A stretch of 64,000 bases of DNA from contig JAWMAR010000277.1 in assembly GCA_036785375.1 (NCBI GenBank), forward strand, positions 1,240,001-1,304,000. The letters are read 5' to 3'. Shown one piece after another: positions 22,583 through 64,000 of this stretch (its first letter is position 1; every line of letters starts with the position of its first letter). A program made the translations under genes and the position numbers. This DNA is from Leucoraja ocellata. Taxonomy: Eukaryota. The notes under the pieces are model-generated. The model was not told the DNA's origin. It made no database searches and was given only the letters and a program-made list of their open reading frames with translations.

Positions 22583-22782
22583 NNNNNNNNNNNNNNNNNN
22601 NNNNNNNNNNNNNNNNNNNNNNNNNNNNNNNNNNNNNNNNNNNNNNNNNNNNNNNNNNNNNNNNNNNNNNNNNNNNNNNNNNNNNNNNNNNNNNNNNNNN
22701 NNNNNNNNNNNNNNNNNNNNNNNNNNNNNNNNNNNNNNNNNNNNNNNNNNNNNNNNNNNNNNNNNNNNNNNNNNNNNNNNNN
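22583..22782. other. Assembly gap (200 N)
   Basis: Run of N. Confidence 1.
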
Positions 22783-22810
22783 CCCAGCGTGTGGTCAGAG
22801 AGGTCGGCAG

Positions 22811-22837
22811 CAAAGATCCTCCGCTATATGATCTTTG
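22811..22837. mobile_element. 27-bp TIR-only remnant (CAAAGAT family) in 8-bp TSD
   Basis: gtcggcag|caaagatcctccgctatatgatctttg|gttggcag. Confidence 0.7.
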
Positions 22838-59360: not shown

Positions 59361-60110
59361 GGGGTTGGTTTGAACTACTACTCATAACACCCACCCATAA
59401 TTTTAGCCTTTAAATGTAAACATTGATCTTTTATTTTCATTGTAACAAAGAGTAAGCATCAGTAAGCATCAGAAAATGCTAAATATTTGCCCATTGATAT
59501 CATAGTCATCATTGGCAACGTATTTCTTTAAATAAGGAAGAAAATATAATGTGGTCACTGAAGAGGGACCAAGCCTTGGCTTGCAGGCTACTTTTGAGAA
59601 AGAGGACAACAAGAGCTATGTAACCACACAGAGTTAAACATGGCACAACAGACACAACATTTAAAAATCAAAAAACTTAGCAGATTCTTTTCCCTTTCGA
59701 ATTTCACTCTATAAAGATTGTAAAAAATTGTAGTTAATATTCAAATCAAAAATAATTTAACTAAAATCATTACACATTGTATGAAAGGGCATAACAGCTA
59801 CTTAGCATAGTTAGATCATGTTGCATTTAGACCATGGGCTGAGGTGCCTTTTAATTACATGTTGTGACCCACCTCCCATATCTACCTGTATTTATAACAT
59901 ATTGTGTAAAAATATTATAGAAATTATATCTGAAACTCGTCAAGAACAAAACCTGCCCATATTTTTAAAATATGGAAAAAACCTCCAAAATGTTGTCAGG
60001 TTTCCGAGTAGTAATTGTCCAATCAAAGCACGTTTGACATTGAGTCAGATGTCAATTGACCAATCACGCACTTTGTTTCAGGCTAGCTAGGCAGGGAGCA
60101 CACTGGGATC

Positions 60111-62627
60111 ATGGCGGAGAGTATTTCATCTGATGCTAGTGTGATGGAAGATTCCGAGGAAGGTTCTTTGGTCTTCTTTGCAATACATGTTGTCGAAACC
60201 CATAGCAAGATCATTGCATTTAGTGAGAAAAGCTGTAAGAAGTCTCAAGAATGTGCAGCTAAGTGGATGGAAGTGGAAGAAAGTCTGGAAAGCAGTCGCT
60301 GCTAAGGCACTGCAACACAGACACAACAAACAAGGCGTGGGACCAGTGAAATTTACGGACGAAGGCCATGGTGCTGCATGAGATGATGATGATGGCCATT
60401 CTCATGGACATTGTGAAGCAACTGGAACTGGAAGGTGCGATCTAACATCAGAATTTATGAAAATTAACCCAATCATGCCACCTAGTATAATTTTGGTGCA
60501 TCTTATAATATGAGATATGAGACCTTGGTCTGAAGTTGAGGACTTGAACTTTTTCTTTCCTGAACAAACTAAATTAAAAGGTGTCACTAATGTAGCTATC
60601 ATTTTTTATGAATCTACCAGGCTCAACCCGTAAAAGAATTTTCAAAACGTTTCTGCACCACTCTTCAGAGCCCCATACACATTCACACACAATAGTGTTT
60701 TGAGTGGACATGCACTGGAGGCACTGTGCTACATAATGAACACTAATCTGATCATTTGCTGACTTGCCTTCCATCCCATCAACCTGGACATGTGTACATG
60801 TGATATGTTGATTTTGTCTTACATAATGTCAAAAATGAAAAGAGGTGAAAAACTCCCTTACACATTTTATCTTCTATTATTAGAAGGCGGCAGTGTATCC
60901 CGGGTTATCATGCTGAGTGCTATCGTCACTTCTGCAACATTACGATAAATCGTGCAAGAGCAAGGTTTCGAAGGAAGAGAGGTAATGCTAACCACTTGCT
61001 GATAATATTGGTTTAAAACTGATTTAGAACATGCAAAATATATCTGATGAAAATCAGAAATTGACTGAAACAGTCTGAATTGTTCTGTTATAAATTTCTA
61101 GTGTATATTTTCACATATTCTAACAAAGAAAAGGTTTCATAAACTTAGTTAGGCCAATGGCACATTTCTGTCAATGTAAGCTTTGAAGTCAGTGATGTAT
61201 AGAATGATGGTATTAATTTTATCTTTGTAAAGTTATGATGTTGTGAACTGCAAAATAAAAATGATAAATAAAAAGGTAGAGCTCATCAAGCATTAAGTAT
61301 GCTTACATTCATTCCACTATATAAAATAAAATGTTTCACTAGAATTTATAGTTACAGATATTATGGTTCATGTAAATACACATTTTAACAAATATGCTAT
61401 ATGCACTTAGTATTGGATAATGCTCAAAGTTTGTTACTAATGGCCCTGAAATATAAGATAGGTCACATTCTGTAATTTTGTACAATAAAATATATTTGAG
61501 GAAGTTGAACTGTTTTTCTTTTCTTTTCTTTTCTGTTTTCTTTTTACCCTTCTAATTTTGTTCAATCAACAGACGCTGAAAAGCCTAAAGCAGGTGAATC
61601 CCCTCAAGAAGCAGTTCCTGATGGCGAACCACATGAGCCGGCCCCAAAGAGACTGCTTCGGTCCATGACAAGTGATGGTCAACAAACAGCTACTGTCGAG
61701 CACCTTGCCTGCAGACATGTCCTACCAGTGCATTGCATCATCTGTAAAGGCTCAAAGTACATCAAAGAACAAGCCACAGGTAAATGAAAAGTAGACAAAT
61801 TAGTACGATGTGAAACAAAACATAGGGGGCAGTTACTAACTGCTGCCACCATGAAGCAAGATGAAGCATTGCTATTACACATAAGAGATAGAGATCTTGT
61901 AGCTTGTAGTGAAGCAAGATACCATAAATCATGCTACCTTAGATACACAAAGGTTGTCACTAAGTTTGCAAAAATTAGTAAACAATATAATCAGCAGCAG
62001 GTGTATGAAAAGTCCTACTCTAGTTTCTGCAAGAGAGTCACCGAGGAGAGAATCATCCGTGGCAAAGAGATCTTTTAAGACTTGCTAAATTTAACCAACT
62101 TCTCAACTAGGAGGTTCAGGAAGTTGCTTGGATGCATCATCTCACAAGACAGGCTGTTTGAAGGCAAGGTTGAAGAGATTCCATCCTGTCTTATGTTTTA
62201 CAAGGCCATCTATGCAAGTAGAAAGTGATATTGTATTCGTTGAATCAATTGCTGTTGAAGAGCTGGTTGAAGGTGTTGTACAAGATAATTCAAGTGAGGG
62301 CAGTGAGAGCAGCAAAATTGTCGGTGAAAATCAACAAGGAGGATCATGGTCCCATCACCTCAGAGACATGTTTCATGCAGCCCAGATAGTGCAGAACAGC
62401 ATTGTCAACTCACCAAACCCCATCCAATGTCCCCCAACTTCTGAAGACGCAACATTAGATAAGGCTGAAGAGATTGTCCCAGCTGAACTGTACAACTTTT
62501 TGGCATGGACCAGTCAGCCAAAAAAATCTGGGAAGGTTGATGTGCCTGATGATCTGCCACAATGTCTACTGTCAGTTGCCCAGGATGTCATGTACCTGAA
62601 ACTAAAGGAAGGATACTCCTTCCAAAA
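60111..62627 (+). pseudogene. Spliced, truncated Academ-like transposase (N-terminal half), antisense in the pgr intron
   Basis: Exons ~60111-60434, 60884-60981 (GYHAECYRHFC) and 61573-~62627 (VLPVHCIICK, DLVACSEARYHKSCYLRYT, IVPAELYNFLAW, LLSVAQDVMYL). GT-AG introns, with matching phase across intron 2. In-frame TGA at 61785 and frameshifts. Two CCAAT boxes upstream (60019, 60060). The element's left end may be near 59376. Confidence 0.7.
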
Positions 62628-62723
62628 CTCCTTCCTGTTTGGTGGACTGTGTGGGGCGGGGGGACCCGTTGCTCCTCCTGTGCAGCAGGTGGCACTGCAC
62701 AGGACAAAGGGAGATGTAGGCAG

Positions 62724-63316
62724 CAAAGATTGTAGAGCAGAGCAAGATAGACCACTCCTCTGAAATCCAATGAACTGACGTGTAGTACGTAATGGAACAT
62801 CACGGCCGCCATTTGTTTATGCCAAACGGGACATCTTTGGTAGCGGGGACGGACTCCACAGTTATACAATCTACTCTTACATCAGGTCGCAGGGAAAAGC
62901 AAAGATACTAGAGGCTCCTCTAGTATCTTTGGGGAAGAGGACGTTTCCTCCACTCCTGAGTTGATCCAGGACTGATTCTCGGCCCCCCCGATACCAGTGA
63001 AGGTGGTCGGCAGGAGAGCCACAAGCGTCTGCCCGCGGTCGGCGCTCCCGAGGGAGGCAGCAGGCAATGCTCCTCTAGTATCTTTGGTGTAATCCGTTCC
63101 AAAGATTGATCTGCTCTATCATCTTTGGTGTAATCAGTGTTGTAGGGAAAAGTGTGTTATATATAATCGATCACTTCACATATTTAGTTAATATTATTGT
63201 AAATTTTATTAATATTATTGTAAATTGCTGCTCAATAAAATGGCGTTGTGTCATACCCATGTCATACTACGCTTTTTTCGCAGAGTGGCGCATCTTGCTC
63301 TGCTCTATAATCTTTG
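62724..63316. mobile_element. MITE with ~34-bp CAAAGAT TIRs and 8-bp TSD (P-like or hAT)
   Basis: caaagattgtagagcagagcaagatagaccactc ... gagtggcgcatcttgctctgctctataatctttg; TSD gtaggcag / gtagacag. Confidence 0.85.
62900..62931. mobile_element. 32-bp TIR-only remnant in 8-bp TSD
   Basis: gggaaaag|caaagatactagagg+ctcctctagtatctttg|gggaagag. Confidence 0.8.
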
Positions 63317-63905
63317 GTAGACAGTGTGGGTGTGCAGTCAGATTCTGTGTGTGCAGCCATTTTGAGTTGTCTTGCTGCAAGCATTGAGTAATAGACTCTC
63401 AAGTTTCATGCAGACCTAGAAAACGAACACGAGAAATACAGAGTATATGTGAAATCTGTTGATCGCAGTGTCTTGGGGAGAGAACCTTGTTGACCTCAGT
63501 GTCACAATATGAGAGATGGAGCAATTGTTTCAGCTTTTCACACCACTGCTATCCCAGGACCTTCATAAGAGGGCATGAGCAAGGCCAGGAGTGATGATAG
63601 GATAGGGCTATTATAATATTGCATGACCTGCTAGGCTTACTCAAGAACAACGATAAACATGCCAGTGGTTGAATGTTGCCTCTTGAAACTGTGGGCCAGT
63701 GAGCACTTAAGAACTTCAATTTGGCTGGGATAAGAACGGGTGAAGAGAAATGGGAAGAAGGCGAATAAAGGTCAGCTATTTACAGATCGATGATGAATTT
63801 GGTTTTAGGTGTAACACCGTCACCAAACTCTGCCTCTGGGAATATAACTGGATTATTAGTTGGCTCATATATTTAGAGTTAAAAAAAAATCAATGAAACG
63901 TGATG

Positions 63906-63907
<2 letters not shown>

Positions 63908-63956
<49 letters not shown>

Positions 63957-64000
63957 TAATAATAATAATAATAATAATAATAATCATAATCATAATCATA
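63908..64000. repeat. (AAT)n then (AATCAT)n microsatellite
   Basis: Direct reading; it runs off the window end. Confidence 0.98.

Follow-up and report, generated by a model that had tools for sequence, protein, structure and literature searches.

A P-element excision scar copied as a passenger within a vertebrate MITE, and the probable placement of the second-strand cut by sequence

The 64,000-nt stretch of DNA analysed here (the window) contains, at positions 62900-62931, a 32-nt near-palindrome composed of two TIR tips and enclosed by two almost identical 8-mers. Its presence raises the question of whether such a sequence is the donor-site scar of a P-type transposon, whether the transposon left from this very place, and whether the scar records the 17-nt cleavage geometry proposed in the initial annotation, a figure which derives from the Drosophila element, where excision leaves 17-nt tails (PMC7776569). 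The comparisons described below indicate that the 32-mer is a real P-element scar, which is present in the window as a copied passenger, and that the interest of the case lies in a probable family-wide cut at 18 or 20 nt, to which the window's own 32-mer, one of 74 passengers, adds little alone.

The 32-mer and the MITE that carries it

The features of the scar and of its carrier are as follows.

62716..62723, plus strand: left 8-bp target duplication (TSD) of the MITE, 7 of 8 letters shared with 63317-63324
62724..63316, minus strand: 593-bp non-autonomous P-family MITE with the scar inside, oriented opposite to the transposase-coding parents (from alignment of copies)
62724..62757, plus strand: TIR of the MITE, long, 20-type
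62833..62839, minus strand: 7-nt terminal motif in the MITE
62892..62899, plus strand: left 8-bp target duplication of the scar, GGGAAAAG, one change from the likely ancestral form
62900..62931, no strand assigned: 32-nt P-element excision scar with two short-type TIR arms, within the MITE (from sequence, copies and fold)
62932..62939, plus strand: right target duplication of the scar, GGGAAGAG, preceded by an extra G in most sister copies
63069..63086, minus strand: lone 18-19-nt TIR arm in the MITE, probably one half of a second scar
63100..63127, no strand assigned: 28-nt two-armed remnant in the MITE, likely a third, older scar, its left flank disturbed
63283..63316, minus strand: TIR of the MITE, long, 20-type
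63317..63324, plus strand: right target duplication of the MITE

Direct reading of positions 62900-62931 gives an inverted repeat of 15 nt plus 17 nt, and the description of a near-palindrome between 8-bp flanking repeats is thereby borne out to the letter. The flanks GGGAAAAG and GGGAAGAG are identical at seven of eight positions, i.e. the TSD is imperfect at this copy. The 32-mer folds into a hairpin of 14 bp (z = -7.2), and none of 200 shuffled sequences was equally stable. The same letters can be divided as 15+17, as 14+18, or as 15+18 with an overlap of one nucleotide, and the split between the arms is thus ambiguous. Since GGGAAGAG forms the left flank in 11 of 15 sister MITE copies of the scar, and one added G is found on the right flank in seven of nine, the ancestral duplication was likely GGGAAGAG. 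Read contigs of all four sequencing runs contain an insertion of GA at 62913; the 32-mer may accordingly be a 34-nt join whose 15-nt arm was shortened later, or these contigs may represent stand-alone 34-mers.

The exact 32-mer occurs 76 times in the genome assembly, compared with no occurrence of its reversed control. Among the first ten loci, nine have the flanks seen in the window and one (L004) is solitary, with a different TSD that is perfect. Extension of the 32-mer by 7 nt of MITE flank gives 59 matches, for nine of which, in addition to the window, long flanks were examined; the remaining 17 exact copies comprise 15 with the left flank of the MITE (26-29 of 30 letters) and two stand-alone copies, L004 (TSD 8/8) and L298 (TSD 6/8). 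The MITE flank is therefore common to 74 of the 76, and the scar in its MITE context is spanned by read contigs of runs X7 and X18. From these shared flanks, the scar evidently has a single origin, in an ancestor of the MITE with which it then multiplied, the window copy being one of 74 passengers. That the excision took place at the window locus itself, as first proposed, would fit a 7/8 TSD lying directly against the arms, but is refuted by the flank shared among 74 copies and by the bridging contigs, which leave it next to no probability. Identical 32-mers at many loci, which the initial annotation had counted against its own reading, do occur in the literal sense, but these copies ride in a larger MITE and do not constitute an amplifying 32-bp element. 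An anchored genome search for a pre-insertion copy of the scar site in the window returned a single match, a deletion, and no clean one.

The MITE itself aligns over its full length with 11 fetched loci (about nine distinct sites) at 82-94% identity, and its 34-nt TIRs are 88% complementary. Identity to the transposase-coding elements is 82-88% over its first 112 bp (62724-62835), which correspond to their 3' end, and 75-82% over its last 60-95 bp (about 63221-63316), which correspond to their 5' end. In other non-autonomous copies, a scar-like span lies ahead of downstream letters identical to those that follow the motif at 62833-62839. The MITE splits a short high-copy repeat (about 62630-62717 and 63317-63430), other copies of which are some 25 letters longer at the insertion point. 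Where the presence of this insertion in relatives was sought, repeat contigs predominated among their reads over the MITE.

Transposase-coding parents

A profile search of the genome with PF12017 gave 20 matches, eight of which were extended to 20 kb. A CAAAGAT end lies upstream of the transposase in all eight. Both ends together with a perfect 8-bp TSD were found in three (10,546, 11,862 and 11,258 bp), and both ends with a TSD match below 7/8 in another three; in the other two, no far end was found within 20 kb. Four parents share a stop-free frame of 772-773 amino acids, at a DNA identity of 97.4-99.5%. The 772-residue frame is matched by the Pfam families PF12017, PF21787, PF21788 and PF21789, while the THAP domain (PF05485) is split across two upstream exons, both of which are present in two of the four copies scanned. 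The sole PDB match is the Drosophila P transposase 6P5A (E 1.8e-42), whose catalytic residues D230, D303 and E531 are aligned to D, D and E by a count made by hand. A similar hand count, using the residue list in PMC7776569, gives identity at seven of eight GTP-site residues, with K400 aligned to R. The domains and the 6P5A match together supply the THAP, HTH, split RNase H and GTP-binding insertion domain by which the P superfamily is recognized. On this evidence, the parents encode a predicted THAP, RNase H and GTP-binding P transposase and make 8-bp TSDs. Long elements with CAAAGAT ends and both THAP and P-transposase domains, proposed beforehand as a check, thus exist (10.5-11.9 kb, three with perfect TSDs), supporting the proposal that the family was mobilized by a transposase of the P/THAP9 type.

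The parents (L046-L053) and 2.1-3.5-kb derivatives of them (L054-L058) contain fossil scars in their 5' regions, of 33 and 36 nt in the parents and 31 nt in the derivatives. One 36-nt scar in the parents has paralogous empty sites in other copies of the element. The P family evidently inserts into its own members, as judged from these sequences. One element end (L051:2301, G000:C2099) is of a 16-type, with the internal 5-mer 2 nt nearer the tip, and this end predicts a 16-nt tail.

Short spans across the genome and the position of the inner cut

Three TSD-anchored pattern searches, corresponding to three TSD classes, returned 269, 244 and 1037 short spans (reversed controls 2, 0 and 0), many passengers being included in the set of 1037. 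The 170 spans analysed were the first 30 of each search and 80 later entries of the sets of 269 and 244, taken in order, with entries that by eye repeated earlier ones skipped; the sampling reached contigs C45 and C63. Four of the TSD positions are fixed by the search pattern, and with this constraint there were no TSD mismatches in 148 spans, one in 20 and two in two. Omission of the last two and merging of spans with shared flanks left 151 independent events. In these, both TIR tips lie between the duplicated 8-mer under a hard length limit: 145 span 19-40 nt and six span 42-48 nt, the search being open to 48, with peaks at 38 nt (17 events), 33 nt (15), and 34, 31 and 28 nt (12 each). Among those printed, spans above 40 nt mostly contain inserted or re-copied TIR letters and not deeper element sequence. 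In searches without flank constraint, a TSD with at most one mismatch was present in 23 of 30 loci, and in another set perfect TSDs were present in 14 of 14. A generic count of 1176 spans was left out of the length analysis, since it is dominated by passengers, with a single flank common to 11 of the first 15 loci.

For many of the scars that lie in host repeats, paralogous empty sites with a single 8-mer are available. An orthologous empty site was found for scar L283, where contigs of three runs (related organisms A, B and D) lack exactly 44 nt, equal to the scar and one TSD, while the scar is present in run X15, whose organism (C) may belong to the species of the assembly. The sharp length limit, the empty paralogous sites and the empty orthologous L283 site support the view that the short spans behave as end-joining scars at donor sites, which by extrapolation would number thousands in the genome. 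Thus, the notion of fixed germline excision scars holds for the short spans as a class, though not for the window locus. Comparison of orthologous sites, likewise suggested at the outset, yielded a scar site empty in three of four runs but no full-element allele; pairs of full element and scar at one site were absent among the fetched loci and in two read comparisons, and three candidates with a full end proved to be a self-match or adjacent elements. At L015:1493-2109, a scar lies beside a full element that shares its target 8-mer, with three copies of the 8-mer, and near 1499-1547 of L271 a scar and a full element are adjacent with the target 8-mer in common. Both arrangements appear to reflect repeated use of one target site. 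Many scars occur twice per contig, 0.1-2 Mb apart and between the same flanks, and raw counts may be inflated by duplicated haplotypes or segments in the assembly.

The geometry of the cut was read from these repaired and aged junctions. Intact ends differ in the position of the C that precedes an internal AAGAT, which is 18 in the short type (28 ends), 20 in the long type (25 ends) and 16 in one end. A join of 34 nt can be 17+17 or 18+18 overlapping at GC, and therefore the filler between 17-nt arms that do not touch was examined (50 of 55 loci among the matches listed, read by eye, duplicates included). A filler of 1 nt is C or G in all eight cases; fillers of 2 nt are CG in 24, CT/AG in six and AC/GT in two of 32; and fillers of 3 nt are CxG in eight of ten. 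Between 19-nt arms (50 of 54 loci among the matches listed), a filler of 1 nt is C or G in nine of nine, and fillers of 2 nt are CG in 23, CT/AG in 12 and other in two of 37, with three 3-nt cases and one 4-nt case. Over both arm lengths, the 1-nt filler is C or G in 17 of 17 and the 2-nt filler CG in 47 of 69. A few joins also extend one or two bases beyond 18 or 20, with a filler CAG in seven listed entries for 17-nt arms, some of them duplicates, and CAA once for 19-nt arms. The terminal base of the tails is often lost at joins. Scars that combine a short and a long arm have CG in three of four independent events, and two of ten intact elements inspected have one end of each TIR type, for which reasons one transpososome likely cuts at both 18 and 20. 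The per-side retention tally was confined to central matches, with no hand-picked loci or passengers. In the unbiased set, C follows position 17 or 19 in 19 of 32 sides unexplained by the partner (p 5e-4 against 0.3), several of the 19 being ambiguous, and the next base is the TIR's A in four of 15, the level expected by chance. These junctions suggest that short TIRs are left with an overhang of 18 nt and long TIRs with one of 20 nt, both occurring on one element, and the proposed 17-nt geometry gives way to a retained limit of 18 or 20.

The same data have to be weighed against other origins for the spans and for the extra C. A hAT family, with the spans as hAT-derived remnants, would suit the TSDs, which are of 8 bp and have T at position 2 and A at position 7 in 35 of 54 (symmetrised). 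Such TSDs also agree with hAT targets. Excision by hAT transposases is not known to leave TIR letters behind, unlike the spans found here. In the long elements with the same ends the encoded transposase is of the P type, Pfam gave no hAT domain for the main parent ORF, and no second ORF of transposase size is present in the C376 element, the one scanned; for the elements examined the hAT reading is refuted, and we give it virtually no credence. The spans might instead be extreme internal deletions from aborted gap repair, or a self-amplifying micro-MITE, as could be argued from identical spans at unrelated sites (38-mers, and the 32-mer alone at L004 and L298), from the lack of an allele pair of full element and scar among fetched loci, and from the six of 151 spans above 40 nt. 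Against this, retention ends sharply at 18 or 20 instead of at scattered depths, the longer spans printed owe their length mostly to the inserted or re-copied TIR letters noted above, the junctions are very diverse, and the recurring sequences are the expected products of microhomology. Moreover, the spans lack the inner TIR and the subterminal sequence that are contacted by the Drosophila enzyme (PMC7776569). Deletion or self-amplification is accordingly very unlikely as an account of the scars.

A more closely related alternative retains the Drosophila stagger of 17 nt, with 19 nt on the long TIR, and has the extra C added during repair on the template of the partner's terminal G. The peaks at 34 nt (12 of 151) and 38 nt (17 of 151) can equally be read as 17+17 and 19+19, position 18 complements position 17 in the common TIR, and templated insertions are common at Drosophila junctions (PMC2895639). 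The decisive material is a TIR variant with A at position 17, for which templating predicts T/A or TA. Its 14 loci have CG in nine, G in one and no filler in four; counted as 12 independent events, all with perfect TSDs, these become CG in eight, G in one, none in three and T/A in none. Because the A17 variants give CG and never T or A, partner-templated addition is ruled out as their source, and two stagger lengths would be needed even so. The three of 12 A17 events with a 17+17 join fit the 17-nt stagger, and some cuts may indeed fall at 17 or 19; as a general explanation, a stagger of 17 and 19 nt has in our estimate only a slight chance of being correct. We consider it probable, with appreciable room for doubt, that the P stagger is not a fixed 17-nt ruler, and that one vertebrate P transposase cuts the second strand by sequence, just ahead of the point where the terminal 5-mer recurs internally, giving tails of 18 and 20 nt at the two ends of one and the same element, so that the thousands of scars would form a catalogue of germline end-joining of long 3' overhangs.

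The 32-mer very probably marks a donor site at which a P-superfamily transposon, once inserted in an ancestor of the 593-bp MITE, was excised and the broken ends were joined. P elements with such ends exist, encode a predicted transposase and make 8-bp TSDs. One strand would be cut at the tip of the element and the other inside the TIR, just ahead of the internal AAGAT, which would leave 3' tails of 18 nt (short-type TIR) or 20 nt (long-type TIR). End joining of these tails would give 34 or 38 nt where the terminal GC pairs, 36 or 40 nt where the tails are joined directly, and shorter products after trimming to internal microhomology; the 32-mer in the window would be 18+15 with an overlap of one nucleotide, or a 34-nt join that later lost 2 nt. 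The MITE, on the evidence of its copies, then multiplied with the scar inside. Of 47 ends found by a separate subterminal anchor, 45 have, directly after the presumed cut, five bases that repeat terminal positions 3-7, while positions 8-9 vary; these ends are relatives, not independent trials. Given this repeat, pairing of the new 5' end with the transferred strand could take place near the tip, with the middle looped out. Such an arrangement would set the cut by sequence and would tolerate the 2-nt indel, which would lie within the loop. The fold-back is suggested by analogy with the Drosophila strand-transfer complex, where the transferred strand loops out and folds back onto the non-transferred strand, pairing with its 5' part (PMC7776569).

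Relation to known P elements, and other features of the window

The family resembles the P element of Drosophila melanogaster in its THAP-HTH-RNase H-GTP-binding transposase with aligned catalytic residues and in its 8-bp TSD (PMC7776569), as well as in the retention of long TIR tails at the donor site and in the classes of join (PMC7776569, PMC2895639), which in Drosophila comprise 1-3-nt microhomology, blunt joins and templated insertions (PMC2895639). By contrast, the tails appear to be 18 and 20 nt in place of 17, two TIR lengths occur in one family and even in one element, the TIR sequence differs, and the parents measure 10.5-11.9 kb as opposed to 2.9 kb. The scars here are fixed in the genome in large numbers, whereas the Drosophila junctions came from induced crosses (PMC2895639). 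Zebrafish Pdre2, with zfTHAP9, is likewise a vertebrate P element with an 8-bp TSD, internally deleted copies and a THAP9-type transposase, but its TIRs are of 13 bp and of other sequence, compared with about 34 bp here (PMC10983969). Flanking deletions are reported from Pdre2 excision assays, and the accessible part of the same source gives neither a stagger length nor TIR-retaining footprints for Pdre2 (PMC10983969). The MITE is similar to P-derived MITEs such as BuT5 (PMC3698922) in being short, non-coding and bounded by P-element ends, and differs from BuT5, as that element is described, in holding nested excision remnants of its own family. Fixed P scars in a vertebrate genome, or a stagger of another length, were not reported in the literature searched, a coverage from which subscription papers and repeat databases are mostly absent.

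According to a 2020 review, neither the order nor the mechanism by which P elements have their strands cleaved is known (PMC7776569). TIR variants that occur naturally, and in which the presumed cut moves by exactly the 2-nt indel, offer a test of how the second cut is positioned and of the fold-back end structure, and the young parents with open frames make such a test of cut positioning practical. The scars also constitute a large record of how the vertebrate germline joins long 3' tails, and can serve as near-homoplasy-free markers between related species.

Other parts of the window contain further repeats. To the left of the MITE, positions 60087-62720 hold broken frames with cysteine and histidine motifs, partly multi-copy by read depth; these decayed frames gave no Pfam family above the cut-off and no usable Atlas match, and the segment is possibly a decayed transposon. 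The end of the window (63907-64000) is a long AAT/ATC microsatellite. A second, separate scar lies far from the MITE.

22811..22837, no strand assigned: 27-nt scar with a long-type arm and a 7/8 TSD

A run of N at 22584-22783 ends 27 nt ahead of this scar. The genome contains 27-mers like it, and a 22-mer, in many places with near-identical TSDs, so that the 27-nt scar, too, is likely a passenger, and further passenger families are indicated.
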